Positions 4,485 through 30,766 of a stretch of 64,000 bases of DNA are shown piece after piece. Location of the stretch: assembly GCA_963769605.1 (NCBI GenBank), contig CAVYML010000009.1, positions 1,419,041-1,483,040 on the forward strand, given 5' to 3'. The notes under the pieces are model-generated. The model ran no database searches. It saw only the letters and a program-made list of their open reading frames with translations, and was not told the origin of the DNA. The stretch is from Ignavibacteriota bacterium. GTDB lineage: Bacteria > Bacteroidota > Ignavibacteria > UBA10030. Within the stretch, counting starts at the first letter, position 1, and each line of letters opens with the position of its first letter. A program made the position numbers and the translations under genes.

Positions 4485-4563
4485 TTTGCTTGCTGTGTTC
4501 ACAAATGACATTGATGCATTTTGGCAGGAATTTTAATACGTTGTAATAAACAATCATTCGAAC

Positions 4564-8471: not shown

Positions 8472-8472
8472 C

Positions 8473-9204: not shown

Positions 9205-9215
9205 TTTTTTAAATA

Positions 9216-10430: not shown

Positions 10431-10447
10431 ATAAAGGATAAAATACT

Positions 10448-12229: not shown

Positions 12230-12234
12230 TGTGA

Positions 12235-12572: not shown

Positions 12573-12583
12573 GAAATTAAGCA

Positions 12584-14119: not shown

Positions 14120-15612
14120 GTGTGAACAATTCAACAAACAGCATCATCTCCAAAGTCTGGTCGTTTTGCAACACACTCCGCGATGACGGCGTGGGGTACG
14201 GCGATTACTTAGAACAGCTTACATATCTGCTCTTTCTCAAAATGGCAGACGAGCTTGGCAAGCCGCCATATAACAAAAAGCTGCCTATCCCCAAAGAGTA
14301 TAACTGGGAAAGCTTAAAGAGCAAAAATGGCTCCGAGCTGGAAGCGCAGTATACAACCCTACTGCGCGAGCTTGGCAAACAAAAAGGAATGCTCGGGCAA
14401 ATCTTTACCAAGAGCCAGAATAAAATCCAGGACCCGGCAAAACTCTTTAAGCTCATCGATTTGATCGATAAAGAGCAATGGAATGTAATGGGCGCCGATG
14501 TGAAAGGCGAAATCTACGAAGGGCTGTTAGAGAAAAATGCGGAAGATACCAAGAGCGGGGCGGGACAGTATTTTACACCGCGCGCGCTTATCAAAGTAAT
14601 GGTGGAATGTCTGCGACCCGAACCGAACAAGAAGATCATCGATCCGGCATGCGGTACCGGCGGCTTCTTCTTAACGGCATACGATTACATACTTGCCAAT
14701 CACGAATTGGATAAAGGACAAAAGACATTCCTGAAGTATAAGACTTTCTTTGGCAATGAGATCGTTGCCAATACGCGCCGGCTATGCCTGATGAATCTCT
14801 TTTTGCATAACATCGGCGACATCGAAAGCGAATCGACCATCTCTCCGAACGACTCGCTTATTGCCGATAACAGCGAACGCTACGATTATGTGCTGACAAA
14901 TCCTCCGTTTGGTAAAAAGAGCAGCATGACATTTACGAACGAAGAGGGAGAGCAGGAAAAAGAAGATTTAACCTATAACCGTCAGGACTTTTGGGCAACG
15001 ACGAGCAACAAACAGCTCAACTTTGTGCAGCATATCCATACTATTTTAAAGACAACCGGATTAGCGGCGGTTGTTGTGCCGGATAACGTACTGTTTGAAG
15101 GAGGCGCGGGAGAGACTGTCCGGAAGAAATTATTGGAAACGACAGACCTGCATACCATTTTGCGTCTGCCGACAGGAATTTTTTATGCAAATGGCGTGAA
15201 GGCAAATGTGATATTCTTTGATGCGAAACCTGCCTCCAAAGAACCGTGGACAAAGGAACTCTGGTATTACGATTACAGAACCAATGTGCATCACACGCTC
15301 AAGAAAAGCACATTGAAACAAAGCGACCTGAAAGAATTTGTCGAATGCTACAATCCAAAAAACCCTAACAAGCGGAAAGAGTTATACAACGAGAAAACGA
15401 ACCCCGAAGGCCGCTGGCGGAAATTTACATACGAAGAAATCATCAGCAGAGACAAGACCAGCTTAGACATTACGTGGTTAAAAGATAAATCCTTAGCCGA
15501 TCTGGACAACCTGCCCGATCCTGATGTCCTTGCTGCGGACATAGTCGAGAATCTGGAAGCGGGGCTGGAGAGTTTTAAAGAAATCATAGCATCATTGAAT
15601 GGGAAAGGGTAA
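14116..15612 (+). CDS. hsdM: Type I restriction-modification DNA methyltransferase subunit (HsdM), N6-adenine
   Basis: Motif I is IDPACGTGGFF and motif IV is LTNPPFGKK. The HsdM_N-like N-terminus is SKVWSFCNTLRDDGVGYGDYLEQLTYLLFLKM. 498 aa. Confidence 0.92.
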   Translation: MSVNNSTNSIISKVWSFCNTLRDDGVGYGDYLEQLTYLLFLKMADELGKPPYNKKLPIPKEYNWESLKSKNGSELEAQYTTLLRELGKQKGMLGQIFTKSQNKIQDPAKLFKLIDLIDKEQWNVMGADVKGEIYEGLLEKNAEDTKSGAGQYFTPRALIKVMVECLRPEPNKKIIDPACGTGGFFLTAYDYILANHELDKGQKTFLKYKTFFGNEIVANTRRLCLMNLFLHNIGDIESESTISPNDSLIADNSERYDYVLTNPPFGKKSSMTFTNEEGEQEKEDLTYNRQDFWATTSNKQLNFVQHIHTILKTTGLAAVVVPDNVLFEGGAGETVRKKLLETTDLHTILRLPTGIFYANGVKANVIFFDAKPASKEPWTKELWYYDYRTNVHHTLKKSTLKQSDLKEFVECYNPKNPNKRKELYNEKTNPEGRWRKFTYEEIISRDKTSLDITWLKDKSLADLDNLPDPDVLAADIVENLEAGLESFKEIIASLNGKG

Positions 15613-15791
15613 TATCGCAGATAAAAAACAAGCATAAAACCCCTATAAATATTGAAGAATCTTATGTAATGGTTATGTAATTCACACGTGGGGGAACGAT
15701 GTTTTTGTGCAAATATTAGCGGTTTTTATGTGGCAATTATGTATGGGGAGAAATTAATGACCCACCTTGAAAAGGTGTTAAAAAAATAACT

Positions 15792-15918
15792 GTAATTCCT
15801 AACAAATCTTATGGTTTCGAGTGGCACCTTTCCAAGGTGTTATTACAAATTCCCAAATAAATCCAATGGTTATTGAGGATACCTTGGAAAGGTGTCTCCC
15901 GCAATTCTGATGATTCAA
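15792..15918. repeat. Hairpin repeat element, right copy. Arms are 15792-15810 and 15845-15862, with an additional partial arm at 15901-15918
   Basis: CCCACCTTGAAAAGGTGTT ... GCACCTTTCCAAGGTGTT, and TACCTTGGAAAGGTGTCTCC. The interior (TCCTAACAAATCTTATGGTTTCGAG) matches the left copy (TCCCTAACAAATCTGATGGTTTTGAG). Confidence 0.85.
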
Positions 15919-15926
15919 ATGATCAA

Positions 15927-16027
15927 GTGGGGAATATGCTGGCCTTGGGAGTGGGGAATTGTCGTGGCCCCAGGGGTGGGGAATATGGTGGCCCTAATTA
16001 CCCTTTTAGTGGGGAATTATCGTGGCC
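15927..16027. repeat. Array of four 18-19-bp direct repeats GTGGGGAAT(A/T)(T/G)NNNTGGCC, separated by 6-15 bp (iteron-like or arm-site-like)
   Basis: Copies at 15927-15944, 15951-15969, 15976-15993 and 16009-16027, read directly. A further CCCCACCTTGGAAAGGTG copy follows at 16211-16228. Confidence 0.8.
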
Positions 16028-16395
16028 CTTGACAGAGAGGCTCTGGATTAAATTCCGCGACGCACAATTAATTGAGAAGTATAGTCAGGAAGTATCTGTC
16101 GAAAATATAAGCAAGCTTACGACATCTCAATTGATCTTCCTGACCATTTTAACGGATAAAAGATTAAAGGAGCTGCAAGTATCTCTTGAACAATGAGAAA
16201 AATTCAAGTGCCCCACCTTGGAAAGGTGAAAAGAGTGATAATAATTGACAAGATGATTGTAGCCATATTAAAAACGGAAATTATAAATATTCTTCGTCAT
16301 TGGTTAAGATATTATCCGTGGTATTCTCAATTTAAGCTGGATTGGTTGACAACAAGCGGCATAAATAAATAATTAGAGCAATGCATATAATATTG

Positions 16396-16929
16396 CTAAT
16401 AGCAATGAACATATTTTTTTATCTGAGAATTACCCTGATAGATTGGGTCTGAAGGTATTTGCTTGAGAATGTGTATTTCAGATTTGCTCACTAATATATC
16501 AAAGAGTGTATCTTCGCTTAATTGGTAAACATTCAAGATAATTGTGGATATTACTTTAAGAATTAAAGATACATTGTAATCGCATTCTAAGCGCAAATAG
16601 ACGGCTCTTCTTTTTGAGGTTTCAATAATCCTAATCGTAGAAGGGATGTTCTTCTTTTTCAATTCTGTTTGTACTAATTTAAGGAATTCATATTTTCCTT
16701 TTTTTGTGGGGATAAAAATCGACATGCGTTTCCCAACATCGTAATATCTCTCTGTCAGCATGATAACGGTTTTGTTTATATCGATTAGCAAACTCATGTG
16801 CTTTGCCCAGGGAGTTGGCAAAAGAAATTCAATAATCGAAGATTTAATTGAATTTAAAAGCACATTCTTTTTCAATCCTCTATCAAAATGGCGTGATGAA
16901 AATTTGAATATGTTGTAATAAAGATTCAT
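16396..16929 (-). CDS. Hypothetical protein (AT-rich; possible orphan immunity or accessory gene of the RHS locus)
   Basis: An intact 177-aa ORF in a block that looks markedly more AT-rich than its surroundings (16.2-18.2 kb), downstream of and co-oriented with the RHS toxin gene. No recognisable motif. Confidence 0.4.
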   Translation of the reverse strand: MNLYYNIFKFSSRHFDRGLKKNVLLNSIKSSIIEFLLPTPWAKHMSLLIDINKTVIMLTERYYDVGKRMSIFIPTKKGKYEFLKLVQTELKKKNIPSTIRIIETSKRRAVYLRLECDYNVSLILKVISTIILNVYQLSEDTLFDILVSKSEIHILKQIPSDPIYQGNSQIKKYVHCY

Positions 16930-17033
16930 ACTTATGTCAAAATATGCACAACAATCTTTTAAAGGTCTTTTTTATCCTACTCTTATTTCGTAATAAAATA
17001 TGTTCAATAGGCACGTTTTTAAAATAAGATTTC

Positions 17034-17549
17034 TTAAATACTTTGCTCTTCCTGTTTTTCAAATTCAATTGTCATGACTGTTGTCTGAAACAAACGATCA
17101 ACCGCATGCATATAAGCGCCCGTCCGTTTATCCTTGCGAAAATTGCTTGAATAAAAAATAGCATTGACGATAATACCGGCATAGAAGAAACTTGGTAATA
17201 TCATCCATAACAACAAGAGGCAGCAGACAAATTGACGTGCGCATAATTTTAATCTGCCGATTCGATGCCCATGCAAATCTGTAACTCCGATTTTTATTAC
17301 TGCGTCACCTACTCCCGCAAAATTTGCATACAGCGGCAAACCGATTCCCAAAAAGATCGTATACATTCCCCAAAGTGAATATAGTGTCCAAGAAAACAAT
17401 GAAACATCGGGAATAGGATTGAAATTGTATTTACCTGCAACCATTGCGACAGGGGGAAGAAGAATTATAATATCACATAAGAATGCAACAATCCTTTTCC
17501 AGGGTGCTGCAAGCTTTTTACTTTTCCATTGGATGTTACGTGAAGGCAT
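17034..17549 (-). CDS. Small integral membrane protein, RDD-family-like
   Basis: 171 aa with about 3-4 predicted TM helices. The N-terminus (KRIVAFLCDIIILLPP) resembles the RDD family start (RxxAxxIDxxI). Co-oriented and 3' of the RHS gene. Confidence 0.4.
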   Translation of the reverse strand: MPSRNIQWKSKKLAAPWKRIVAFLCDIIILLPPVAMVAGKYNFNPIPDVSLFSWTLYSLWGMYTIFLGIGLPLYANFAGVGDAVIKIGVTDLHGHRIGRLKLCARQFVCCLLLLWMILPSFFYAGIIVNAIFYSSNFRKDKRTGAYMHAVDRLFQTTVMTIEFEKQEEQSI

Positions 17550-17584
17550 AACGACTTGCTCATTTTATAGATTACATGTCTGGA

Positions 17585-18184
17585 TTATTTTTTGGATGAT
17601 CCGTTTTCCTCCAAAAGAGGCACTACTAATATGGATGCAAATGTTTTAGCAATTAATTTTGAAAATTCAATGACAAGTTTTTTATTATATTGCCTACGTG
17701 CAAAATATAGCGTCTCGCCTATATTATTTGAAAGAATTATTTGGATCACAGCAAAAATGCCTGAATGTCCTGAAGATATCACATCAGCACGAATACCTTT
17801 AATATTTGTTGAATTGATAATCACTTGATTGATACCGCCAAAATATTTCTTATATCCTAGAGTAAGAAAATCATGTTCAACATTGATATTCATCGGATGT
17901 TTAGTTACAGTCCATCTATAAAGGAGAAAAATGATAAGAAATAATAAAATTAAATATAGATAAACAATTTTAGGTGCGGCAACCAATTGTCTAAAAACGA
18001 TAAACGTTATAATAAGCAAAACAAACATTGCTTTTATATCATATCGTCTGTGAAGTCTGAGATAACTATCGCCTTGACTTACTATTTTGTACGGGGCTAT
18101 AGCTTTTTTTAAGTCAATATTGTCAATCATTTTTCCTCCAACTATGAGATTATTATAGCAATAAATCTCTATTTTAATAATCAT
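17585..18184 (-). CDS. Small integral membrane protein, candidate immunity protein for the upstream RHS toxin
   Basis: 199 aa (or about 182 aa from the internal MIDNIDLK start). There are 2-3 hydrophobic TM segments. Its start overlaps the RHS gene stop by about 10 nt. This is the classic position for a polymorphic-toxin immunity gene. Confidence 0.5.
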   Translation of the reverse strand: MIIKIEIYCYNNLIVGGKMIDNIDLKKAIAPYKIVSQGDSYLRLHRRYDIKAMFVLLIITFIVFRQLVAAPKIVYLYLILLFLIIFLLYRWTVTKHPMNINVEHDFLTLGYKKYFGGINQVIINSTNIKGIRADVISSGHSGIFAVIQIILSNNIGETLYFARRQYNKKLVIEFSKLIAKTFASILVVPLLEENGSSKK

Positions 18185-21100
18185 CTAGTTTCCAAATAAC
18201 TTTTGCACCAGCATAGATTGCCATGGTTACATTCATCGTATAAACAAGTTTTTGAAATTTTGGACTTATTACAGAAACATGGGCAAGTGATCCCACTAAT
18301 AAACCAGCACCAATCGCTTCGGAGAGATCACATCCTGCCTCATTAAATCCTAATGTCTTTGCAAGCGCCTGAATGCCGCTGCTCTCTACTTCGTGCGCAT
18401 TCTCCTTTTGTGAATATCTAGCAAAATTATCTGTTCCAGCACCAATCCCAAACATATCTAATCCCGCAGAAATAATATCCGTATAGCTAATAGCTTTTCC
18501 ACCCGAGGCTATTGCTTTATCTAGTATAGCAAGCAAATCTATAACAGCTGCGAAAATAGTAGCTGTGGCTACAGCCTGGCCCTTATTAATACTAAATCCA
18601 AGGTTAATTCCGAAACCAAGATCAGCAACCCCACCATTTATATCAATCATATTCACAGGATTATTACTTGTATAGCAATAGTGATTCGAAGATCCAGATC
18701 CAAATAAAAGCGGATCTTTTCTTGTCCATCTCCCAGTAATTGCATCATAATCTCTTGCTCCAAATCTTACCAATCCCGTTTGCATGTCGTACAATCCTCC
18801 GGCAAATCCCATGGGCACAATTTGTTGACCGATGAAGTTAGTCACATTGCCGAATTCATCATAATCCATCTGTTGAACAACCTGGCCAGTCGATGAATTA
18901 ATTACTTGCCGGACGCTGCCAAGCTGGTCTGTCACAATTCGATATGCAATACCGGCTTTTAAGATGTACTCAGGCGCATTTTGCTTTGTCGCATAAACAA
19001 AATGACTTATGACATTTCCCATACTGTCAACTTCTGCGCTGATTCTTAATTCATCGCTATATAACCATCGTTGAGTAATTTGTCCATTCACCTTCCGTAT
19101 GATACGCCGTCCAGCCCCATCACTGATATACTCAATGCGCGAAGAATTTGGAAGAACCACGGAGAGAAGATTTCCCATCGCATCATAATCGTAACGAGTG
19201 GTATCCGTTCCCGAAATCTTCATCTTTAAATCGCCGTTTTGAGAATAGAAGTATTGAGCATTACCATAATGAAGAAGGCGATCCTGTGCATCATAAAATC
19301 CGCTGTCAACTTGAATGAGAGCAGCATGTGCAATTCGATTTCCATTTGGATCGTAGGAATATGTCGATACTATCGTATCGTTTTTCGATACCTGCAGAAG
19401 CTGTCCCTTTGCATCGTAGAGATAAGTGTATTTTGTTTTTATGCCAGAAACGGAATCGATCTTCTCAGTGATCCTTCCAAGACTGTCCCTTGAGTATCGA
19501 GCCTGATATAGTATGGTTGATCCATAAAGTGTTTGCTGACTTGCAGTTTCTCCGAAAGCATTATAAGTATAATTTGTCACTACACTCCCCAGAGTGTCGC
19601 ATAGTAATAGGTTATTTGCAGGACCCGATTTTAATTTGAGTATTCCTGCAGATATAAGCAAACCATCCTTATCATAAGCAAAATTGATGCTGTCCTTATT
19701 ATTGATGGTCTCTGACAAAATTTCCATATCGTTGTTGTATCTAACCTTTACACTTCCATTGATAGAACCAGTCCAGTGAACATTCTTTGGCAATTGTCCA
19801 TCATACTGATATAATAAAGAGTCTCCATTGGGAGAGATTACTCCAGTGACCAATCCTTTTACTGTGTCATAGAGGAAGGTCATTGTACCTCGATTGTACG
19901 AAATGCATTTCGGCTGTCCAGCTAACGATCCCTTACCGCCATAGAAGAAATCCATATTCAAACTGTCGGGTCTGGCAATTCGCGTGATCTCTTTATCATA
20001 ATTGTAGGATTTTGTCGTTGCTCTCTCGCTGTCACCTGCAAACGGTGGAATATATTTTTGCTCAAGGTCTACAGCCGTGTACTCAAAGTTATGTGACGGT
20101 TTAGAAGGAGGAATAATCGAAAGCATATTTCCATTATGGTCGTACGTGAATGATACTTCCGAAGAATCCGGCAAAATAGTTTCTACCAATCTATCTCCGG
20201 CATCATAAAAGAACTGCGTATTGTGCCCATAAGGATCCGCAACCTTTGCTTGCCTGCCGAGCGAATCGTAGGCATAAGTCGTTATCCTACCGCCCTGTGA
20301 AGTTTGAATCTTCCTTCCTCTTATATCGTACTTATACATTGTTGGTGCAAGTCCCGCTGTGGAATCTTTGATATCTTTTCCTTTTGCATCATAGAACGAA
20401 AAAGTTTTTCTTCCTTCTGCGCTGGTCTTTGTCAGCATCCGTGCATTGCCGTCCCATTGCGTTGTGTATGTCTTTCCATTGACCTGAACATTATCCGTTA
20501 AACCGGTTACACTGTTGCCGGTCATTTGCGTAATGGTGCGGGTCTGGTCCACGGTGGATTGCAGACCGCCCGGAGTATTTACAGTAACATTCTGCAAAGG
20601 TGTCTGCATGCCGAAACGTGGATCAGGCGTTTGCTGATCTGGCGTGTTTGTACCATTTGGAACCGTTGTTGTCGATGTACCGTCGGTACCAATGGTCGTT
20701 ATCGTTTTAAGTCCGTTCGCATCGGTATTGGTCAACACGCGGGAGCCATCGTGCAGCTTATCCACGCGGTATATCGTCTTCTTTCCCATTGCCGTTAATG
20801 AAGTAACCGTATATCCGACGCTGTCATACTGCCGCGATAGATTTGTATAACCACCGGCAGGGTCCATATCTTTTGTCAAATAGCCGAGCGTATCATAAGA
20901 ATAATTGTATGTATTGCCGCGTGCATCGGTTTTACTCGTCATCAATCCACCGGTGGTGTATGTGAATATATTCGATTCATACGCAGGATTTGTTGCCTGC
21001 AATAAATATCCGAGCGTATCAAGCTGCAAATCCGTGCGAACTCCATACGGCGATATAATAGCCGTAGCCATTCCGGCTATGTCCCGATCGATAGTTATAA

Positions 21101-24100
21101 TATTGCTATCGACGTCGACAATCGACGTAAGATGATAGAGAGAATTGTAATTAAATTTATATTTTACAACGCCCGTCAGTGCATCAAGCGTGCGTAAGTG
21201 TCTGCCGCCGTACGAAAAAACGTACTGCTCGCTGCCGTCTTCGGATGCGATGAGGATCTCACTGAGCGAGATGCCGGGAAGAGGCGGAGAAACTTTGAAA
21301 ATATGTGCCCCTTCGCATACATATAAGTTATCGTCAGATCCTGTCGCAATATTCATATAATTTCCAAGTGAGTATGCTCCGGCTGGGCAATTATCCAGCC
21401 AGGAATTACTTCCACCACCCACCACTGTCTTGATGTAACCATCGCTCGATATTCCTCTGACCGCCCCCCATGTAACAAAATACAATGTTCCATCTTTCCC
21501 TAATGCAAGGCTATAAGGGTATCCGACACGCGCATTTACGGCAAGCCCGCCGTCTCCGGAATTATAGTTTTCGCCCGTTCCGGCTATCGTATGTATAATT
21601 CCGTCAGGAGTAATTTTTCTTATATGAGAACCCAAGCCTTCACCGAAATAAATAGTGCCATCATCCGCCACTTTCATGGTTGTAGTTCCGTCATTATGGA
21701 GTCCTCCCGAAACCGGCTGCAACCCTCCATAAAGTGCGGCTTTTGTTGCAGGACCTCCGTCACCACTCGAACCTTGCACGCCATTACCGGCAACTGTTGT
21801 TACAATGCCATCGGGAGAAATTTTTCTGATACGATGGTTGCCTCCTTCAAAGATATAGCAACTTCCATCTTTTCCGAATGCGATAGGAGACGGTTCATAG
21901 AAAAACGCCTGCGTTGCGGGTCCGCCATCTCCGCCAAAAGAATTGGCACGCCAAATTCCGGCATATCGAATTCGTTCTCCATATTGAGTGACCTTCCATA
22001 TTACTCCATTCGACACGTCTGCCACATAGAGATTTCCATCCGGTCCGAAAGCAAGTGAACAACCTAACTGACTAAAGCTACAGCATTTTGCTTGCTTGGT
22101 TGTACTTGAGTCATCCCAAGTATAAACAGCCCAGTTAGCCGGAAGTCCTCCAATTGTACTTATGACACCTGATGAATCTATTTTGCGAATCATATAGTTA
22201 AAATAATGCAATTCATTTGTATTACTAAAGGTGAAATTACTCATTCCAAGATCTGAATTCTGTGTTGCAATTGTCCCTTCCAGGCCTAAAGAAGCGCAGA
22301 CGCTATTGATCGAAACATCTTTCTTCCCCGCAATTGTTGTCGTAACATTATCCATGAGTTGCGCATTACGAATCTGCCCATCGCCTTGATAGAGAGTTCT
22401 GCCGACACAATCGTAACTATGATGGATATTCAAACTCCAGCCGCCTATGCCGAGCGATACGATATCGAATGCGCCGATTTTACCTTCCCAAATTTGTGTT
22501 TTTTGAATCGCTTTTAGTGTCGGGATATATTTCGTCATTTGTGTTCCTGACGGCGTTGCAAAGCAATTGCTGTAATCCGGCGGCAATGCATATTGAGCCG
22601 AATAAGAATAAGTAATCTTTGTCATAATGTTTTGCTGGCCCTGAGTTCTTCGGCCGTACGCGTCCAAACCATCCCAAACAAAATGATAAGTAAGATTTGT
22701 TTGCGGAGAAAAGCTGTAAGTAAACTTTTTCCCGATAATTTCCACATCCAGTGTAATATCAGAAATTCCCTGTGGTAGAGATGCGCCCGTCAGGGGAATA
22801 TCGAGTGCATACGCTTCTTTACGTCCAAAAACCCTGTCGCTCCTATAATTGAGCGTAATACCGGTATTGGTTAGAGGAATCGATTCCGAAAGTGTCTGGT
22901 CCTGTAGTCCGATAACCGATCCTGCAACGACATTGTCTTTTTCAATTTTCGTATAGCGATCCGGCAATGCATTATGCGGTTCTTGCGCGTTCGACGGCCC
23001 GAGCATAGTAAACCCCGCCGCAAACGTTCCCAGATGCGTTATTTCACAGCGCCAGAGCGACTGACCTTTTTTATAGTTCGCAGCAAGATATTGTTGTTCA
23101 GTCGATGAAATTCCTTTCGCGCTAAGCGTATCCGATGATTCCGCAATACCGTCTCCATTATAATCTATCGATGCAATGCTCCCGACTGTATCCATTATTT
23201 TGATTACTTTTCCATTTGTTGATGTCTTCCATACTCCATTCTGCTTATCGTACCAGCCAAAAGGAATTGTCAATCCAACCGGAAAGTTCATTACATTTTC
23301 AAGATAAAAAACTGCCGGCTGACTGAATCGAAGATCTCTTGCCCCGCTGCTCATCATTTCATCGGCACTCAATTCAAAGGCAAAAGTATACGCTACTCCG
23401 GTTGGCAACACCCCCGGAATTGCAAATTCTCCACTTGCATTTGCAGTATATTCGGTCAAACGAAGTGAGACAATATTAACAGGCAGAAGGCTATCGAGCA
23501 AGACAGGAATTAATACCTGAGGGGCTGTTACCGTCTTAAAACAAGTATATGAACAGCTGGACAATATTTTATAGAAATACTTATCAAACACCAAATTCGT
23601 CGATGTACCCGGTCGAATAAACAGAGCAGGTTCCCGTACACCTAAAGAATCAGTTACCTGATCTCCTTGCACTATTTGAGGCATAGATACATCGACATGA
23701 TGCACCACGGTATCCAAAGGCATAAGGATAACATCGTCTGCGTGCCTGTATAATAGTAATCGTGCATCGACTTGCCGTTGTGCCGACAAATATCCTATGC
23801 GTTCATAATTGACAGTGAGGTATGCCCCTCCATTCACGACAAAATCATACATGCCATCGTCTCTGGTGATTGTACTGCCGTATTCATCATGTTTTAATAT
23901 CGTGACACCAACACCTTTAAGGGGTTGATGCTTTTCATTCAATACTCTGCCACGTATGATGGAAACGCGAGCCTTACTAATTGTTCCCGCAGTTACTCCT
24001 TTTTGTATCGGATTCGATCCTGAGTATAAAAATTCGCTCGCATCGCCTATGTTTGTTGCGATAGTTGTATCAAGCTTCGGTGCAATCAATCCGGGATCGG

Positions 24101-26843
24101 GCACCGGCAAAACTCTTGTTACCGATCTATTGAATGTCGATATATTGCCGGCTTGATCGATTGCTGCAATTGAAATCGTATTTTTTCCTTGGATCAAACT
24201 CAGGACGGACTTAAACCCGCCATTTTGATCCGCTCTTTGCAGTATACCATTGATTGTGATCGTTGTACCTGAAGCATCGTTGATGCTGCCAAGGATGGAA
24301 ACGACCGAATCAATAATTGTACCGCCTGCGAGTGGTGCAATAAGGTTAATGATGGGCGGTTTTGTATCGCGGATTATAAATCTCCGTATCGTAATCTTAT
24401 TACCTAAGACATCAGCGGCATCCAGAGTAAATATATTCATGCCTTCATTTAGAGAGAGCGTATCTGTAAACGATCCGTCTGAATGGACAGAAAATGCAAT
24501 ACCATTTATCGTGAATAAGACAGACGTTGAATCTATTACAGAACCGGTTATAATCACTTTTGTGTTATTTGTCATGAGACTATCGGATGGAGTCAGAATG
24601 GTTATATCTGGAGGCTGCGTGTCCAGACGGACATGACGCACGAAAGAGGTAACGTTCCCGGCTCCATCGGTTGAAGATATTTGTATAAGGTTCATTCCTT
24701 CATTTAACGGCAATGTATCATTAAATGAACCATCAGTATGAACATTGATGGCATTATTATTAACCAGCAAAGAGACTTTTGTTGAATCGCTTACGGTTCC
24801 TGTAATTGCAAGAAAATTATTTTTTGTCACTAACGAGTCTGTCGGCGTAATAATTTTCAACACAGGCGACTGCGAATCTTTTCGTACATACAGTGTGTAA
24901 CTTGTTCGATTTCCAGCGGCATCAGTTGCTACAAGTGTTATTGCATTGATCCCTTCAATCAAATTAATTTGCCATGTAAAAGAATTATTCAAAATAGAAA
25001 CACTATCGCCATTTACGGTCAGCAAAACAGTTGTCGAATCCGTTACCATGCCGCCGACAGTTATTGCGGGAAGATTGGTTATGAGACCGTCAACAGGAGA
25101 TTTTAAAACGAGAACCGGAGGCTGGGTATCAAGCCTTATCGTTCGGACAATTGAACTTGTATTTCCGGCTGCATCGACTGCGGCAATTGTGATCGTATTC
25201 AATCCTTCGGACATCGACAGAGTATCGATAAAACTTCCATCGATATTTACAGCATGGACAATCCCATTGATTGTAAGCATCATCGCTGTCGAATCTTTGG
25301 CTGTTCCCGAAACAATGACGGATGGGGAATTGGTAACAGTGAAGCCGGGAGGCTGTGAGACAACCAATGCAGGCGGTGTGCGATCACATACAACCAGCTT
25401 TGTAACCGTCGTCTGATTTCCGGCAGCGTCTGTTGCAACAATTATAATACTTTCTTTTCCTTCGTTTAAAATGACTTCAGAAGAAAATGATCCATTTGTG
25501 ACAGGCACACTTTTCCCATTGACCGTCAATGTTACGGATGTGGAATCGGAGATTGCTCCATTTACCTTGATTGACGAAGCATTTGTAATCATGCTGTCAA
25601 CTGGAGACTGGATATTGCAAACGGGAGGCTGCGTGTCTAAACGCACTGTTCGTACTGCCGAACTGCTATTTCCAGCGGCATCCGTGGCAATGCACGTAAT
25701 CGTATTCAATCCTTCGGTGAGTGTCATGACCGATTGGAACGATCCATCCGATTGAATATCTGCAGGCGAGCCATTGATTGTCAACGTATTATTCCCTGTC
25801 TCGCCGGCAAAAGGAGTTATCACACCCTTAATCGTTAAGGATGTTTGATTTGTAATAAGATTTTCTGCCGGCGCACTGAGCGTAAGAACGAGGGGTTGTG
25901 CATTCATAATCACTTTTCTAATAACGGTCATTGTATTACCGTCATTGTCTCTTGCCTGCACTATAATAGTGTTCAGTCCTTCCTGAAGCGGCACATCGGA
26001 AGAAAATTCTCCGTGATGCACGGGGACTTTTACTTTATTAATCATTACGGTGACTTTTTGGCTGCCCTGCTGTTCCGCAACCGTGCCATAGACATGAACG
26101 GTCGAACTTGCTGTGACGAATCCATCCGCAGGCGCGGTGACAATGAGCAGCGGACGTACGGCTGTTGCTTTACGTTCGCGGATTTCCCACGTCAAAGGCT
26201 TGCCATCGAAAATGACGGAAAAAACATTATGATGTACTCCCGGTCTGAAAACCTCCGGCTGACCGCGGTCAAATGGAGAAGGCTCTAAATGATTGAGCGG
26301 CCCGATTGGAATTGGTACTTCAAAAAGATTCTCGTTTTGATAACCAAAATATGCCGTAAAGCTTCCATCAACGTTGACGGCGATATTATCCACTATTGGA
26401 AAAATTGCATGCAGATGTTTTATGCAATGCAGACGTAAGAACGATCCCCGTTTCCCTTCCAGGAAAATTTCTATTTTACAGTTTCCTTTTAAGCGGATTT
26501 CTTTTTCTATTTTATCGAAGTCTTTTGCAAAATCGGACGCTGAACAGATCACTTCTCCGTTGACCTTGATCGTTGCGCCGGTGATCCGGTTTTGTCTGCT
26601 GTCGGAATCGCCGTTGAAAATTTCCAATGTAAAAGGAATTTCATCTTGTACCGGTAGAAAGATGGTTTCCGTATAGTGATTTGATGTCTCTGCAGGATCA
26701 CTGCCGGGTATACGTTCGTATTTTTTTAGTGCAAGTATTTCCCAATCGTCATCCCCCGCGGGAATCAGCGGCTGCATCGGTTGAGCGAAGGAGAGTGAAA
26801 AAAACACGACCCCTGAGAATATTCCCCACGAAATGTTTTTCAT
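18174..26843 (-). CDS. Secreted teneurin-like RHS/YD-repeat polymorphic toxin: signal peptide, about 9 tandem Ig-like domains, carboxypeptidase-regulatory-like domain, NHL beta-propeller, YD-repeat shell, Rhs core, and a variable hydrophobic Gly/Ala-rich C-terminal toxin domain
   Basis: 2889 aa. The signal peptide is MKNISWGIFSGVVFFSLSFAQP. Tandem ~90-aa repeats of the form LDTQPPV..SPVDS..TN...V.G...DST.V.LTVNG...DGSF...L.L.EG.N.I...A.D.AGN are present. The CarbopepD_reg-like segment is RGRVLNEKHQPLKGVGVTIL...GMYDF. NHL-like blades carry GDGGPAT motifs. There are many YD repeats (YDALGR, YDANGN, YDSLGR). The Rhs core end is ARDYDAITGRWTRKDPL...NHYCYTSNNPVNMIDINGG. After it comes a 151-aa C-terminal domain. 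Confidence 0.88.
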   Translation of the reverse strand: MKNISWGIFSGVVFFSLSFAQPMQPLIPAGDDDWEILALKKYERIPGSDPAETSNHYTETIFLPVQDEIPFTLEIFNGDSDSRQNRITGATIKVNGEVICSASDFAKDFDKIEKEIRLKGNCKIEIFLEGKRGSFLRLHCIKHLHAIFPIVDNIAVNVDGSFTAYFGYQNENLFEVPIPIGPLNHLEPSPFDRGQPEVFRPGVHHNVFSVIFDGKPLTWEIRERKATAVRPLLIVTAPADGFVTASSTVHVYGTVAEQQGSQKVTVMINKVKVPVHHGEFSSDVPLQEGLNTIIVQARDNDGNTMTVIRKVIMNAQPLVLTLSAPAENLITNQTSLTIKGVITPFAGETGNNTLTINGSPADIQSDGSFQSVMTLTEGLNTITCIATDAAGNSSSAVRTVRLDTQPPVCNIQSPVDSMITNASSIKVNGAISDSTSVTLTVNGKSVPVTNGSFSSEVILNEGKESIIIVATDAAGNQTTVTKLVVCDRTPPALVVSQPPGFTVTNSPSVIVSGTAKDSTAMMLTINGIVHAVNIDGSFIDTLSMSEGLNTITIAAVDAAGNTSSIVRTIRLDTQPPVLVLKSPVDGLITNLPAITVGGMVTDSTTVLLTVNGDSVSILNNSFTWQINLIEGINAITLVATDAAGNRTSYTLYVRKDSQSPVLKIITPTDSLVTKNNFLAITGTVSDSTKVSLLVNNNAINVHTDGSFNDTLPLNEGMNLIQISSTDGAGNVTSFVRHVRLDTQPPDITILTPSDSLMTNNTKVIITGSVIDSTSVLFTINGIAFSVHSDGSFTDTLSLNEGMNIFTLDAADVLGNKITIRRFIIRDTKPPIINLIAPLAGGTIIDSVVSILGSINDASGTTITINGILQRADQNGGFKSVLSLIQGKNTISIAAIDQAGNISTFNRSVTRVLPVPDPGLIAPKLDTTIATNIGDASEFLYSGSNPIQKGVTAGTISKARVSIIRGRVLNEKHQPLKGVGVTILKHDEYGSTITRDDGMYDFVVNGGAYLTVNYERIGYLSAQRQVDARLLLYRHADDVILMPLDTVVHHVDVSMPQIVQGDQVTDSLGVREPALFIRPGTSTNLVFDKYFYKILSSCSYTCFKTVTAPQVLIPVLLDSLLPVNIVSLRLTEYTANASGEFAIPGVLPTGVAYTFAFELSADEMMSSGARDLRFSQPAVFYLENVMNFPVGLTIPFGWYDKQNGVWKTSTNGKVIKIMDTVGSIASIDYNGDGIAESSDTLSAKGISSTEQQYLAANYKKGQSLWRCEITHLGTFAAGFTMLGPSNAQEPHNALPDRYTKIEKDNVVAGSVIGLQDQTLSESIPLTNTGITLNYRSDRVFGRKEAYALDIPLTGASLPQGISDITLDVEIIGKKFTYSFSPQTNLTYHFVWDGLDAYGRRTQGQQNIMTKITYSYSAQYALPPDYSNCFATPSGTQMTKYIPTLKAIQKTQIWEGKIGAFDIVSLGIGGWSLNIHHSYDCVGRTLYQGDGQIRNAQLMDNVTTTIAGKKDVSINSVCASLGLEGTIATQNSDLGMSNFTFSNTNELHYFNYMIRKIDSSGVISTIGGLPANWAVYTWDDSSTTKQAKCCSFSQLGCSLAFGPDGNLYVADVSNGVIWKVTQYGERIRYAGIWRANSFGGDGGPATQAFFYEPSPIAFGKDGSCYIFEGGNHRIRKISPDGIVTTVAGNGVQGSSGDGGPATKAALYGGLQPVSGGLHNDGTTTMKVADDGTIYFGEGLGSHIRKITPDGIIHTIAGTGENYNSGDGGLAVNARVGYPYSLALGKDGTLYFVTWGAVRGISSDGYIKTVVGGGSNSWLDNCPAGAYSLGNYMNIATGSDDNLYVCEGAHIFKVSPPLPGISLSEILIASEDGSEQYVFSYGGRHLRTLDALTGVVKYKFNYNSLYHLTSIVDVDSNIITIDRDIAGMATAIISPYGVRTDLQLDTLGYLLQATNPAYESNIFTYTTGGLMTSKTDARGNTYNYSYDTLGYLTKDMDPAGGYTNLSRQYDSVGYTVTSLTAMGKKTIYRVDKLHDGSRVLTNTDANGLKTITTIGTDGTSTTTVPNGTNTPDQQTPDPRFGMQTPLQNVTVNTPGGLQSTVDQTRTITQMTGNSVTGLTDNVQVNGKTYTTQWDGNARMLTKTSAEGRKTFSFYDAKGKDIKDSTAGLAPTMYKYDIRGRKIQTSQGGRITTYAYDSLGRQAKVADPYGHNTQFFYDAGDRLVETILPDSSEVSFTYDHNGNMLSIIPPSKPSHNFEYTAVDLEQKYIPPFAGDSERATTKSYNYDKEITRIARPDSLNMDFFYGGKGSLAGQPKCISYNRGTMTFLYDTVKGLVTGVISPNGDSLLYQYDGQLPKNVHWTGSINGSVKVRYNNDMEILSETINNKDSINFAYDKDGLLISAGILKLKSGPANNLLLCDTLGSVVTNYTYNAFGETASQQTLYGSTILYQARYSRDSLGRITEKIDSVSGIKTKYTYLYDAKGQLLQVSKNDTIVSTYSYDPNGNRIAHAALIQVDSGFYDAQDRLLHYGNAQYFYSQNGDLKMKISGTDTTRYDYDAMGNLLSVVLPNSSRIEYISDGAGRRIIRKVNGQITQRWLYSDELRISAEVDSMGNVISHFVYATKQNAPEYILKAGIAYRIVTDQLGSVRQVINSSTGQVVQQMDYDEFGNVTNFIGQQIVPMGFAGGLYDMQTGLVRFGARDYDAITGRWTRKDPLLFGSGSSNHYCYTSNNPVNMIDINGGVADLGFGINLGFSINKGQAVATATIFAAVIDLLAILDKAIASGGKAISYTDIISAGLDMFGIGAGTDNFARYSQKENAHEVESSGIQALAKTLGFNEAGCDLSEAIGAGLLVGSLAHVSVISPKFQKLVYTMNVTMAIYAGAKVIWKLDDY

Positions 26844-27245
26844 AAATCCCCCTTATAGGTAGTTACGATGGTAGTTATTTCATTAATCCTCTTTTAAATA
26901 CATGTAGTGTCAAGTTTTTCGATCCGGCATAAGAATCCGCCAGCCATCACGTCAGAGCAAAAATAAGTTAGATGAAAAGTCTGCGCTTTTCCCCAAACCT
27001 TGCTTCTCCTGTGCAGACCTGTCGGTATTATATAAAACTCCTGAATAACATGCAAGAAGTTCAAAGATTAATTTTTGTCTTAATGTCCTCGTCGGAAGCT
27101 TATTTGCCCATATTCAATAAGACGTCTTTTGTCCTGATAAAAACATTGTTGAAACTTTCTTGCTGTCCATTTCGTAAGGTTGGCAGGATTCAATTTATTG
27201 ATAAACGGCATGAAAGACGAATGGGATTTAAGAAGGAGGTATCTC

Positions 27246-27794
27246 ATGAAACACAAAATTGTTGCACTTTCGGTCATTCTGCTTACGGCTGCCTTATTCC
27301 ATCAGGCGGCTGCGCAGACAAAATGTATTTGGATGGTTAAGTCAATAAACGGCGAGCAGGTACAAAAGATCGCTGTTTCCGTTCCCCTGGTAAAGTTCTT
27401 TGCCAGTGAAGATGGAAATTTCGATATCAACGGCGAGAAAATATCGTACAAATCGCTTATGGAAACGTACCGGGATGGGTCTATTATAGAGATAAAGGAC
27501 AGTACCGATAATGGCGTGACCAAAGTTTACGGCGGGAAGTTCGATCAGGATATGAAAGAAAGCTCGGACAGGAACGACCGCCTCTTTATGGAAAGCTCCG
27601 ATAAAGGAGGCGAACCGAAGGTTTCTCAAATGCGCGTGAAATCAGTTGAAGCGGTAAGCATCTTGCTTGCGATGATCGGTTCGAAAGACCTCGACAAGGA
27701 TATCGACGGGATCGAATCCGTGCTCGAACAGGGCGGCGTGCTGTATGTCCGCGACAATGAAAAAGATTCCCGGCTTTGGATTTACGTTAATTGA
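27246..27794 (+). CDS. Hypothetical secreted protein
   Basis: A signal peptide (MKHKIVALSVILLTAALFHQAAAQ) is followed by a hydrophilic D/E/K-rich region. No recognisable domain. The start was chosen at the internal Met of ORF 27180..27794. Confidence 0.45.
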   Translation: MKHKIVALSVILLTAALFHQAAAQTKCIWMVKSINGEQVQKIAVSVPLVKFFASEDGNFDINGEKISYKSLMETYRDGSIIEIKDSTDNGVTKVYGGKFDQDMKESSDRNDRLFMESSDKGGEPKVSQMRVKSVEAVSILLAMIGSKDLDKDIDGIESVLEQGGVLYVRDNEKDSRLWIYVN

Positions 27795-27810
27795 CCTCAG
27801 TCCCTCTGTA

Positions 27811-27886
27811 GCCGACGTCGGAAACATCCGCGATGACCCGCCAGAAGATGATGCAGGTCGGGTAAAACCGTCGCGGCTACAAAGCG
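27811..27886. repeat. Palindromic intergenic repeat (GTAGCCGACG...CGTCGCGGCTACAA hairpin) enclosing CCGCGATGACCCGCCAGAAGATGATGCAGGTCGGG
   Basis: Related copies are at 28100..28262 and 30782..30862. Shared segments are CGCGACGACCCGCCAGAAGATGATGCAGGTCGGG and CCGTCGCGGCTACAA. Confidence 0.8.
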
Positions 27887-28099
27887 GATGCAAAGCGGTT
27901 TATTTAAGCTTTTAAACCAAGAACTACGAACTAAGCACCAAGAACTTTCTTTTTACAATTGACCATTCACTATTCCTACCCCGTTTGACTCTCCTGCAAA
28001 TCATCGGTACATTGAAATAATGAATTGAAAATTTGTTCAGCATGTTCTGAATAGTTCCCCTGAAGATAGGGACAGGTTGATATTGGGAATGTCCGGCGA

Positions 28100-28262
28100 C
28101 CTGCCCGACTGACGACGCCCGCCAAAATGCGCAGCGGGTTGGCAGTCATTCAGGCGGGTGACGTCGGATGCATCCGCGACGACCCGCCAGAAGATGATGC
28201 AGGTCGGGCCCGCCAAAAGGTAAAGCAAGCGGGTAAACAAACCCGTCGCGGCTACAAGAGAA
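28100..28262. repeat. Second copy of the GTAGCCGCG/CGTCGCGGCTACAA palindromic repeat family, upstream of lon
   Basis: The 33-bp core CCAGAAGATGATGCAGGTCGGG is shared with 27826-27858. It ends with CCCGTCGCGGCTACAAGAG. Confidence 0.8.
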
Positions 28263-28369
28263 TCTCGGATATTTGGAACAGGCTGGCTCATTGCTGAAAT
28301 TTTTTTTAAGTCCGCTTTCTGAGTCACCCGTTCAGAACCGGACTTTTGTAGTTCAAGGATTTTACCAGT

Positions 28370-30766
28370 ATGAATGAAAAAATCAAAGGTCTCCAGCAAG
28401 TTGAAACGCTGGATGAAATTCCTACGATCCTTCCTGTTTTACCGCTGCGGGATGTGGTCGTTTTTCCTTATATGATTTTTCCCGTTCTCGTAGGACGGGA
28501 AACTTCTCTGCGCGCCGCCAATGCAGCGCTCGACCGGGGGAAAAATATACTTCTCGTGGTGCAGAAAAATTCCACCGTCGATGAACCGGGAGAAGACGAT
28601 ATTTTCCGCGAAGGAACCGTTGCAAAAATTCTGCAGATGCTCAAACTACCGAACGGATTGATGAAAATTCTCGTGGATGGTGTGGCTCAGGCTACGATAA
28701 AAAAAATCGTGCCAAACAAATTATTTCTGGAAGCGGAAATTATTATCAACCGCTCGGACGCGCCTGCGGGACGTGAAATCGAAGCTCTTGTCCGCCACGT
28801 TTCTTCCCTCTTTGCAGAATATGTGCGCTTGAACCGGAACATCCCGCCGGAAGCGCTCATGGCATACGACGGCATCAAGGAACCGCAGCGTAAAATGTTT
28901 TATATAGCGTCCAACCTTGTTCAGGGCGTGGAAACAAAACAGCGGATTTTACAGACGACGAACCTGCGCGATCAATTATATGATCTTTCCAAAATCCTGA
29001 CGACCGAAATCGATATCCTTAAAATAGAGCGGGACATCGACACGAAAGTGCAGGACAATATTCAAAAATCGCAGCGCAAGTATTTTATTCAGGAACAGAT
29101 AAAAATTCTGCAGGATGAACTTGGAGACGACGAAGCTTCGCCGGAACTTTCTAAGCTGAAAGTTCAATTGAAGTCGGCGAAGATGCCCAAGGAAATCGAA
29201 GAGAAGGCGATGGAAGAGTTCAACAAGCTCAGAAAAACGCCTCCCATGTCGCCGGAGTTTTCCGTGGGACGGAATTATCTGGATTGGATGGTCTCCGTTC
29301 CGTGGTATAAGCGAACCAAGGACGACCTGAATGTCGATCATGTTAAAAATATTCTTGATACGGATCATTACGGCTTAGATAAACCGAAAGAACGCATCTT
29401 AGAGCATATTGCAGTTCTGAATTTAGTCAAAGAAATGCGCGGGCAGATCCTTTGCTTTGTAGGGCCTCCCGGAGTGGGCAAAACTTCTCTGGCAAAATCG
29501 ATTGCACGCGCGCTTGGAAGAAAATTTGTCCGCATGTCGCTCGGCGGCATACGGGATGAAGCGGAAATTCGCGGTCATCGAAGAACGTATATCGGTTCAA
29601 TGCCGGGAAAAATAATTCAGTCGATGAAGCGCGCAGGCGTTGTGAATCCCGTAATCCTCATGGATGAAGTCGACAAGATGAGCGCCGATTTCCGGGGCGA
29701 TCCTTCCTCGGCGCTTCTGGAGGTTCTTGATCCGGAACAAAACACCACTTTCAACGATCATTATCTGGATATCGATTACGATCTCTCAAAGGTTATGTTC
29801 ATCACAACGGCGAATGTCCGTTATGCTATTCCGCTTCCGCTGCAGGACCGGATGGAGGTGATAGAACTCCCCGGATATCTCGATCATGAAAAAAAGGAAA
29901 TCGCACGCCGGCATATTTTTGCCAAGCAGCTTGCCGAACACGGACTGAAGCCGGAAAATTTCCAATTAGACGACGATGCGATACTGCGCATTATCAATGA
30001 ATATACGCGGGAGTCGGGTGTTCGGAACCTCGAACGTGAAATTGCAAATTTATGCCGCAAGGTGGCAAAGGAAATGGTTCTTGCCGATCAGAAAAACGGC
30101 GGCAAAAAGAAAACAAAGGATGTTATTGCGATCAATGCGATAAATATCGAGAAGTATCTGGGCGTGCCTAAATTCCGTACAAAGGCGGCAGAGCGGCTGC
30201 CCCGCATCGGTTCCGTTACCGGTCTGGCATGGACGAGCGTCGGAGGCGATATCCTAAGCGTTGATGTAACCATCATGCGCGGGGCGGAACGCCTGACGCT
30301 GACCGGTCAGCTCGGCGATGTTATGAAGGAATCGGCGCAGGCGGCATTGAGCTATATCCGCTCGAACTCGCGAACGTTCGGCCTTTCGCCGGAATTCAAT
30401 AAAGGAAAAGAAATTCATATCCATTTGCCTGAAGGTGCGATTCCGAAAGACGGGCCTTCGGCCGGAATTACGATGGCCATGGCAATCGTTTCCGCCGCAG
30501 GGAATCGTCCCGCGCGGAACGACGTTGCAATGACCGGAGAAATTACGCTGCGCGGGAATGTGCTGCCTATCGGAGGCCTGAATGAAAAATTGCTTGCGGC
30601 GAAAAGGAGCGGTATCAAGACGGTGTTGATTCCGAAAGAGAACGTTAAGGATCTGACTGAAATTGCGGAAGAAGCGAAAAAAGATCTTTCCATTGTTCCC
30701 ATTGAAACCATAGAAGATGCTTTGCCGTACGTATTCGGGAAAAAGAAAAAGAGCAAAAAACGCTGA
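28370..30766 (+). CDS. lon: ATP-dependent Lon protease
   Basis: Lon N-domain LPVLPLRDVVVFPYMIFP; Walker A GPPGVGKTSLAKS; catalytic Ser in DGPSAGITMAMAIVSA with the downstream Lys. 798 aa. Confidence 0.95.
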   Translation: MNEKIKGLQQVETLDEIPTILPVLPLRDVVVFPYMIFPVLVGRETSLRAANAALDRGKNILLVVQKNSTVDEPGEDDIFREGTVAKILQMLKLPNGLMKILVDGVAQATIKKIVPNKLFLEAEIIINRSDAPAGREIEALVRHVSSLFAEYVRLNRNIPPEALMAYDGIKEPQRKMFYIASNLVQGVETKQRILQTTNLRDQLYDLSKILTTEIDILKIERDIDTKVQDNIQKSQRKYFIQEQIKILQDELGDDEASPELSKLKVQLKSAKMPKEIEEKAMEEFNKLRKTPPMSPEFSVGRNYLDWMVSVPWYKRTKDDLNVDHVKNILDTDHYGLDKPKERILEHIAVLNLVKEMRGQILCFVGPPGVGKTSLAKSIARALGRKFVRMSLGGIRDEAEIRGHRRTYIGSMPGKIIQSMKRAGVVNPVILMDEVDKMSADFRGDPSSALLEVLDPEQNTTFNDHYLDIDYDLSKVMFITTANVRYAIPLPLQDRMEVIELPGYLDHEKKEIARRHIFAKQLAEHGLKPENFQLDDDAILRIINEYTRESGVRNLEREIANLCRKVAKEMVLADQKNGGKKKTKDVIAINAINIEKYLGVPKFRTKAAERLPRIGSVTGLAWTSVGGDILSVDVTIMRGAERLTLTGQLGDVMKESAQAALSYIRSNSRTFGLSPEFNKGKEIHIHLPEGAIPKDGPSAGITMAMAIVSAAGNRPARNDVAMTGEITLRGNVLPIGGLNEKLLAAKRSGIKTVLIPKENVKDLTEIAEEAKKDLSIVPIETIEDALPYVFGKKKKSKKR

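Follow-up and report, generated by a model that had tools for sequence, protein, structure and literature searches.

A probable Sec-exported teneurin-like polymorphic toxin with a rare hydrophobic tip and an exchangeable 3' cassette in an Ignavibacteriota bacterium

In a 64,000-nucleotide stretch from an Ignavibacteriota bacterium (contig CAVYML010000009.1, positions 1,419,041 to 1,483,040 of the forward strand; hereafter the window, whose numbering is used below unless another locus is named), one gene of 8.7 kb at 18174..26843 encodes a teneurin-like protein (TLP) of 2889 amino acids plus stop codon. This gene, like every feature of the locus described here, lies on the minus strand. The reading proposed, with a probability of about 80%, is that it specifies a Sec-exported TLP polymorphic toxin of an Ignavibacteriota-type (FCB group) bacterium, equipped with a membrane-active C-terminal domain (CTD) and paired with an immunity protein having two transmembrane (TM) helices. 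By homology to the TLP of Bacillus inaquosorum (BiTLP) and to Rhs and Tc proteins, the shell of the protein would enclose the 151-residue CTD, which would be cut free after G2738 and stay caged until its release at a target cell; there, to judge from its composition and context, it would insert into, permeabilise or depolarise the cytoplasmic membrane. The immunity protein, whose gene starts 43 nt downstream, would shield the producer by neutralising the toxin inside that membrane.

The open reading frame (ORF) starts with ATG and runs uninterrupted for 2889 codons, and the ORF list agrees with an earlier sequence-only reading that it is the largest gene of the window, in fact by far. A PDB-wide sequence search with its translation gave as best matches two chains named 'Teneurin-like protein' (9pt5_A and 9ifo_A; E = 0, 1119 bits), aligned from the transthyretin-like (TTR) domain through the Rhs core. 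Both are BiTLP, determined by cryo-EM (Raoelijaona et al., Nat Commun 2026; PMC13018210). In that work a TLP is defined by the domain order BIG-TTR-TIP-FN-plug-NHL-YD-shell-CTD and two autoproteolytic cuts, together with a polymorphic toxic CTD of ~15 kDa inside the shell and an immunity gene directly downstream (PMC13018210). All of these properties that can be read or predicted from sequence are found in the window protein, which at that level is a textbook bacterial TLP polymorphic toxin locus; it shares with BiTLP the domain order, both cleavage sites, a hydrophobic CTD of ~15 kDa and an immunity-type gene directly downstream. The next best matches were vertebrate teneurins 2-4 (E ~1e-84), with Rhs proteins of type VI secretion systems (T6SS) and Tc cocoons scoring far lower. 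The parallel with animal teneurins drawn in the sequence-only reading thus holds across the NHL propeller, the YD shell and the core.

The domain order claimed in that reading (Ig-like, TTR-like, NHL, YD shell, Rhs core, C-terminal domain) is also recovered by Pfam and NCBIfam, and the NHL, YD-shell and Rhs core regions are all matched, with teneurin-specific models among the hits. Following the leader peptide there are two N-terminal beta-sandwich domains (residues 32-144 and 147-230; 26154..26750), the first of which is common to many TLPs and to other giant Ig-repeat proteins. The presumed stalk comprises tandem Ig-like repeats (residues 231-908; 24120..26153) matched by Pfam Glucodextran_B, in 8 stretches with E 1.4e-119, and by Big_13. 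Nine such domains had been counted earlier; an internal repeat BLAST gives eight, bounded at residues 231-314, 316-403, 405-489, 490-572, 574-656, 658-741, 743-826 and 828-908. The TTR domain (residues 957-1032; 23748..23975) is of teneurin type (Pfam TTR_TEN1-4, E 1.3e-21; CarboxypepD_reg falls below its cut-off there) and aligns with BiTLP residues 383-470. The region that follows (residues 1033-1299; 22947..23747) is taken as equivalent to the bacterial 'TIP' insertion solely from its continuous alignment with BiTLP ~483-715, and its bounds are approximate. Next comes the FN-plug domain (residues 1300-1506; 22326..22946), where FN-plug_TEN1-4 matches residues 1347-1416 with 26.5 bits, just below its cut-off of 27.8. 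The NHL beta-propeller (residues 1507-1860; 21264..22325) is supported by the Pfam NHL repeat, by alignment to the BiTLP NHL repeats and by TEN_NHL, for which E is 5e-17 in the whole protein and 1.3e-21, in 4 stretches, when the region is scanned alone. The YD-repeat shell (residues 1861-2660; 18864..21263) matches TEN_YD-shell (E 5.9e-37) and RHS_repeat and is aligned with BiTLP and with teneurin-2, -3 and -4 over ~900 residues; the Rhs-associated core (18630..18863) matches NCBIfam Rhs_assc_core at residues 2661-2737 with 59.7 bits against a cut-off of 32.5. This domain train had been called unusually complete; it is instead the standard layout of bacterial TLPs (PMC13018210).

As a side observation, the domain at residues 32-144 recurs near the N-termini of many giant Ig-repeat proteins that are not TLPs (P0094, P0100, P0102, P0104, P0105 and P0113 among them). 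PF27332, present in precomputed Pfam lists, is a candidate family for it.

Relative to BiTLP, the window TLP has a signal-peptidase-I leader without lipobox, an N-terminus made of two beta-sandwiches and eight Glucodextran_B repeats, no FN-plug tether cysteine, a DINGG second core motif and a CTD of an unrelated and very rare family. With the animal teneurins (Ten1-4, Ten-m) it shares the TTR, FN-plug, NHL and YD-shell superfold (E ~1e-84 over ~900 residues), but a signal peptide and Ig repeats replace their TM/intracellular N-terminus and their epidermal growth factor (EGF) repeats, and no EGF match was found in the protein with Pfam. The C-terminus of the window TLP is likewise neither antibiotic-binding-like nor of the Tox-GHH type; its CTD has no Pfam match.

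A YD shell that an aspartyl protease of the Rhs core closes off is found also in T6SS Rhs effectors (Tse5 of P. aeruginosa), in RhsA and in TcB-TcC. Their resemblance to the window locus extends to a C-terminal toxin held inside the shell, as is predicted for the window TLP, to an immunity gene for that toxin and to arrays of orphan cassettes. In the PDB search the window shell and core indeed match T6SS Rhs proteins (8h8a with E 2e-31, Tse5, RhsA) and, weakly, TcdB2-TccC3, so that the gene might be thought to encode a T6SS-delivered effector or a BC-type cocoon of a Tc toxin rather than a Sec-dependent TLP. Such an assignment is scarcely credible, since the protein begins with a signal peptide and Ig stalk where a T6SS effector would have a PAAR domain or a part that binds VgrG, the larger ORFs of the window include none for PAAR, VgrG, Hcp or TcA, and the TTR, FN-plug and NHL domains are teneurin-specific, TLPs being by far the best matches. 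Its start is thus suited to Sec export and not to loading on a T6SS spike, and its plug and propeller are of teneurin type.

Sec-dependent export of the TLP is indicated by the leader at residues 1-20 (26784..26843), with an inferred cleavage position at MKNISWGIFSGVVFFSLSFA/QP; read from the translation, it is of signal-peptidase-I type without a lipobox cysteine, in keeping with the signal peptide that the sequence-only reading had placed before the Ig domains. Similar leaders occur in related TLPs (e.g., ...SEAFA/Q). A prepilin-type leader was considered, as G7 is followed by a hydrophobic stretch, and rejected: position +5 is not Glu, and the N_methyl model gives no match. No beta-barrel and no tail of the type IX secretion system (T9SS) were found in the protein. 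Surface display and contact dependence, also proposed earlier, are plausible for it. A familiar counterpart is Bacillus subtilis WapA, a Sec-exported, wall-attached YD-repeat toxin with a signal peptide, a surface-retention module, a polymorphic C-terminal toxin and a downstream immunity gene. WapA is not known to contain the teneurin superfold of TTR, FN-plug and NHL domains, and it works in a monoderm host.

On a public contig of the same organism (ENA ERZ25039473 contig_12474; L003) the TLP gene is in three pieces, raising the question of whether it is a decaying pseudogene or an artefact of assembly. The split corresponds to a single inserted G (window position 19895; ~12725 in L003), and lon and dnaX are likewise split on that contig; the breaks are therefore most likely long-read assembly errors and not decay. 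The window copy is intact, its ORF being uninterrupted over 8.7 kb and homologous throughout to full-length TLPs, and decay or artefact is accordingly regarded as very improbable. Gene calls on L003 are in general unreliable owing to long-read indels.

Both autocleavage sites of BiTLP have counterparts in the window TLP. At the N-terminal site, G1308/S1309 in the FN-plug (codons 22917-22922), the sequence NVVAG/SVIG aligns with CNKEG723/S724IIG of BiTLP, and Gly-Ser occupies this position in ~62 of 68 aligned homologues, mostly followed by I/V-I-G/E. At the C-terminal site, located by script, R2697, D2710 and D2734 align residue by residue with the catalytic R2103, D2116 and D2140 of BiTLP, and the counterpart of G2738 is L2144, where the ordered part of BiTLP ends ahead of the cut. 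An aspartyl autoprotease cut is thus predicted after G2738, within ...NPVNMIDINGG/V, and would release a tip of 151 residues (2739-2889) and 15.6 kDa, a size that, like its hydrophobicity, would agree with a cytotoxic domain enclosed in the shell. The core motifs are DPLL and DING, corresponding to the DPxG-type motifs that lie 24 residues apart in TLPs.

The polymorphic CTD (residues 2739-2889; 18177..18629), presumed to be the toxin, behaves as expected of such a tip. The body segments are conserved in 120 retrieved homologues, whereas similarity to the CTD is detectable in none of the 120. Two of the homologues (P0002, P0003) are 57-87% identical to the window TLP across all body segments and have no CTD similarity, and the same pattern is seen in 40/40 tabulated homologues, in which the PxxxxDxxG motif is followed by 100-190 unrelated residues. 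The comparison of C-termini thus bears out the earlier suggestion of a polymorphic toxin, with a conserved body and unrelated tips. Homologues of the CTD itself are very few: one in a word-indexed search of 5.8 billion proteins, and three in an exhaustive HMMER search of 1.84 billion cluster representatives (P0121, 72% identical; P0124, 47%; P0125, 50%). By tblastn, L006, a locus of the Bacteroidota metagenome-assembled genome (MAG) SPRUCE_123, has a further match (48% identity) downstream of its main TLP, apparently one more orphan copy.

The large Ig stalk, the NHL propeller and the N-terminal domains resembling CBM and PPC modules would also suit an adhesin or a receptor for cell-cell recognition like the animal teneurins, with the CTD as a non-toxic passenger and with kin recognition or aggregation, not killing, as the function of the locus; a signalling or social role is left open in the TLP paper (PMC13018210). 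Animal teneurins have lost the Rhs autoprotease motif (PMC13018210), whereas the autoprotease residues are retained here; the tip is therefore predicted to be cut and caged and not threaded outside the shell as in teneurins. Further, the tip is hypervariable and co-inherited with the neighbouring gene, and orphans of both kinds, cassettes and an immunity gene, are present. These are signatures of a toxin-immunity arms race and not of receptors, and the adhesin interpretation is considered quite improbable beside that of a caged polymorphic toxin.

The evidence that the tip is inherited with its neighbour comes from the gene at 17585..18130, which starts 43 nt after the TLP stop codon on the same strand. 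It encodes 181 residues from M19 of a 199-residue ORF, with two adjacent TM helices, forming a hydrophobic hairpin at residues ~49-96 with basic flanks, and a C-terminal domain of ~100 residues; no Pfam family matches it. The closest CTD homologue, P0121, is an orphan core-plus-CTD ORF on a metagenomic contig (L001). The next ORF, which overlaps it by 11 nt just as in the window, encodes P0123, a protein of 199 residues with 59% identity to the product of the window ORF. P0123 is the only homologue of this ORF outside the organism of the window. The P0121-P0123 pairing mirrors that in the window, indicating that toxin tip and neighbour travel together, and the ORF at 17585..18130 is the probable immunity protein of the window CTD. 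Beyond it, 35 nt further on, is a gene for an RDD-family membrane protein of 171 residues (17034..17549; Pfam RDD E 8.9e-11, hydrophobic segments). Small membrane-protein genes downstream of the TLP, as described in the sequence-only reading, are thus present in the form of the two-helix hairpin ORF and the RDD protein, but of the three small genes downstream, the one at 16396..16929 included, only the first is linked to the tip by co-occurrence.

What the CTD does is suggested by its composition and by the company it keeps. It is hydrophobic (grand average of hydropathy, +0.48), rich in Ala, Gly, Ile and Leu (Ala plus Gly, 26%) and has several acidic residues and an isoelectric point (pI) of ~5; one strongly hydrophobic segment of ~28 residues, a second weaker one and small-xxx-small motifs are present. 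An AlphaFold2 model from an alignment of 4 sequences is all-helical, with low confidence (pLDDT 45). The proteins encoded after all four members of the CTD family are multi-pass membrane proteins. Membrane proteins following toxin genes are typical of membrane-targeting toxins, as with the immunity proteins of colicins and of CdiA ionophores. Ionophoric CdiA-CT toxins and pore-forming colicins, too, have a small hydrophobic helical toxin domain, countered by a small immunity protein of the integral-membrane type. The analogy is limited to mechanism, the window CTD having no detectable sequence relationship to them and a different delivery scaffold. Searches of Pfam, NCBIfam and PDB profiles gave no similarity of the CTD to Tse5-CT, colicin pore domains or CdiA ionophores, which it resembles in composition and context only. 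Reported precedents for a membrane-active tip are the Rhs toxin Tse5 and ionophoric CdiA-CT toxins (PMC11630599). Within the TLPs, the CTD of BiTLP is hydrophobic and permeabilises E. coli only if sent to the periplasm (PMC13018210).

CTDs of other TLPs have been described as ADP-ribosyltransferases, nucleases, proteases and HINT-type toxins (PMC13018210), so that the window gene could encode a polymorphic TLP toxin whose CTD is an enzyme or other non-membrane toxin, the two-TM protein then acting otherwise or not being the immunity factor. The several acidic residues, the pI of ~5 and the want of any recognisable family would agree with this. The CTD nevertheless carries no catalytic-family signature, is unusually hydrophobic and Ala/Gly-rich with an all-helical prediction, and is followed by membrane proteins in 4/4 members of its family; an enzymatic CTD is thus judged unlikely, though it is the most serious of the alternatives weighed here. 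Because no known toxin family matches the CTD, insertion into, permeabilisation or depolarisation of the cytoplasmic membrane is held at slightly better than even odds, and the toxin/immunity assignment of the CTD and the ORF at 17585..18130 at the higher level given at the outset for the locus.

Several observations weigh against the proposed reading of a caged, membrane-active TLP toxin. There is no meaningful match to the CTD in Pfam (E up to 10, four family members), NCBIfam or the PDB profile search, and the structural model is unreliable at pLDDT 45; with neither a toxin family nor a dependable fold, the term 'pore-former' reflects the composition of the CTD and the fact that its neighbours encode membrane proteins. 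The second core motif is DINGG and not DPxG, a substitution whose effect on cleavage is not excluded; related TLPs likewise vary at that proline, and variability at the glycine of the first core motif is noted in the TLP paper (PMC13018210). In BiTLP, C719 of the FN-plug forms a disulfide to the CTD (PMC13018210), and this tether cysteine is Asn in the window TLP and its clade, so that release of the CTD may differ from that in BiTLP. The genes beside the TLP include none for an anchor or for a device that would export it across the outer membrane. Finally, only the common strand and the short gaps suggest that the TLP and the genes after it are co-transcribed; a scan of 15600-28400 for sigma-70 promoters and intrinsic terminators gave nothing interpretable for operon structure, and the organism may use other promoter types.

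A second line of evidence for a polymorphic toxin is the mosaic structure of its 3' end. The closest genome is the Ignavibacteriota MAG MFD01476.bin.2.1 (L005 and L013), which has a syntenic locus between lon/dnaX and a type I restriction system; its main TLP is 69% identical to the window TLP and has a different tip, and an orphan cassette lies downstream. A tract of the window shell and core (18643..19347) is 92.2% identical in nucleotides over 705 nt to that orphan cassette (L005 17240-17944), and this identity stops exactly at the codon for D2734. The remaining gene is 73-78% identical to the relative's main TLP, and the relative's own 3' end 65%. The tip of the L005 orphan cassette is a distant relative of the window CTD (hhalign 88%, E 3e-6). 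G+C content at third codon positions (GC3) is 0.36-0.43 for the body of the gene and drops to 0.32 for the core, 0.25 for the CTD and 0.22 for the immunity gene. Many related TLPs are followed by arrays of orphan core-CTD units; in the window tblastn detected no further remnants of an orphan core or CTD.

An orphan immunity gene probably does occur in the window. The ORF at 16396..16929 encodes 177 residues and is 47% identical over 165 residues to L005 16673-17179 (168 residues), the gene directly after the main TLP of the relative, where the immunity gene for a different CTD would be expected. No copy of that main CTD was found in the window by tblastn. Given a match to an immunity-position gene and the absence of the matching CTD, the ORF looks like an orphan immunity gene. 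Between this ORF and the presumed immunity gene of the window CTD lies the RDD gene, for which the other TLP loci compared offer no counterpart.

Taken together, the 92% identity compared with 73-78% and 65%, the drop in GC3, the orphan modules and the orphan immunity gene indicate cassette replacement as in Rhs and CdiA systems. Sequence comparison thus reveals the 3' shell/core, CTD and immunity gene as an exchangeable cassette of the classic kind, replaced by recombination in the conserved shell/core. Orphan cassettes are evident for the family of the window TLP, whereas the TLP paper makes no mention of them (PMC13018210).

How such a protein would leave a diderm cell is a separate question, as, according to the TLP paper, no delivery machinery is evident (PMC13018210). 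Clustering of the ORFs that flank related loci shows that in eight loci of the FCB group (L006, L007, L017, L020, L029, L030, L031 and L032) TLP genes or orphan arrays lie beside genes resembling those of type II secretion systems (T2SS). In L006, L007, L029, L030 and L031 genes for a pseudopilin, an A24 prepilin peptidase and an MshEN-type GspE ATPase follow one another in that order on one strand upstream of the TLP, with GspF further upstream in L007 and L030. In four of these (L006, L007, L030 and L031) a secretin gene lies downstream of the TLP and its immunity/orphan array, and in L006 and L030 a rhomboid gene comes before the secretin gene. The most frequent placement of the TLP is between the ATPase and secretin genes. 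L017, L020 and L032 are arranged otherwise, the last having T2SS-G, T2SS-K, secretin and GspE genes between two TLP genes. The secretion-like genes are at L006 2747-5500 and 21389-23404; L007 51-4720 and 19417-21394; L017 14154-19076; L020 3-989; L029 7031-9782; L030 5200-9690 and 23522-28245; L031 6385-9314 and 29355-30215; and L032 19767-27892. GspE identities among the linked loci are 44-94%, and the TLPs there are 36-62% identical to the window TLP and have Sec leaders. Two of these loci also contain, as an observation apart, a membrane protein with a Peptidase_S26 (signal-peptidase-I) domain, in L006 (15295-16329) right behind the main TLP, where the immunity gene would stand, and in L031 (27286-28362) at the end of an orphan-cassette array.

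In the window no homologues of pseudopilin, A24 peptidase, GspE or secretin occur anywhere, and the syntenic L013 locus is likewise without such genes; nor do type II secretion-like genes lie within the flanks of the TLP loci compared from other phyla. The MAG of L013 is also the source of L017, so that in one genome a TLP stands at the lon/dnaX locus and a secretion cluster with orphan cassettes on another contig. A tentative extension, held at well below even odds, is that TLPs of FCB diderms are cargo of a T2SS-like machine (of the type IV filament family) and that the CTD and its two-TM partner form a new membrane-toxin/immunity family. Sec would bring the TLP into the periplasm, from where the pseudopilin/GspE/GspF/secretin apparatus would pass it through the outer membrane or place it on that membrane; the window TLP would have moved to its locus between lon/dnaX and the restriction island and would use such a machine encoded elsewhere. 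The linked loci are phylogenetically related, and T2SS-like export is therefore a hypothesis and not a result. No report of a linkage between TLP and T2SS-like genes was found in the literature. If the hypothesis is true, the machine would supply the 'missing delivery machinery' of the 2026 TLP paper.

The genomic surroundings of the window TLP are of a different kind, with no T6SS, T9SS-cargo or T2SS genes adjoining it. To its left is a defence island (3348-15612) containing Fic/DOC, type I restriction-modification, a GMT-wHTH protein, DUF5131, GmrSD and Schlafen/AlbA_2 genes, among them hsdR (4564-7347), hsdS (9216-10430), GmrSD (10448-12229), a Schlafen/AlbA_2 ATPase-like gene (12584-14119) and hsdM (14116-15612). 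At the same position the syntenic relative has a different type I restriction-modification system, with Abi_C and GIY-YIG genes. To the right of the TLP are lon, dnaX and a PorP/SprF-like gene, followed by a pectin/uronate utilisation cluster; no tRNA genes mark island borders in the window. The PorP/SprF-like (T9SS-associated) ORF (33404-33985) is possibly split from the ORF at 32928-33467, and the segment 32928-38853, which further holds large ORFs without Pfam match (547 and 865 residues) and a DUF4402 protein, may be a cluster for a surface structure or T9SS cargo. The pectin/uronate locus (40755-63858) contains genes for a GntR/FCD regulator, KduI, KDPG aldolase, short-chain dehydrogenases, PfkB kinases and a major facilitator superfamily transporter, together with GH28 (two copies), GH88, DUF4861 and a TonB-dependent receptor that is apparently split (41636-42553 and 42264-44696).

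The nearest genomes to the window are MAGs of Ignavibacteriota and Bacteroidota. The 2026 TLP survey, based on isolates, lists six other phyla, with neither of these among them (PMC13018210), and the diderm host of the window TLP thus belongs to a phylum outside those surveyed. Bacterial TLPs, the presumed source of animal teneurins, were structurally characterised only in 2026, so the class of system is already known and the new points are modest ones, namely the phylum, the type of leader, a toxin/immunity family that is rare, hydrophobic and uncharacterised, and a clear signature of cassette exchange. The window locus and its metagenomic relatives indicate that the family is common also in uncultured Ignavibacteriota and Bacteroidota, and by the source names of homologues it reaches Gemmatimonadota, Kryptoniota, Nitrospinota-type and Binatia MAGs. 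The T2SS-like linkage in relatives, which is not found in the window, offers a testable lead on how caged toxins exit the diderm cell. The tips of TLPs diversify by the same orphan-cassette recombination as those of Rhs and CdiA toxins, and the window locus adds to their repertoire an uncharacterised hydrophobic toxin/immunity pair that is directly testable.

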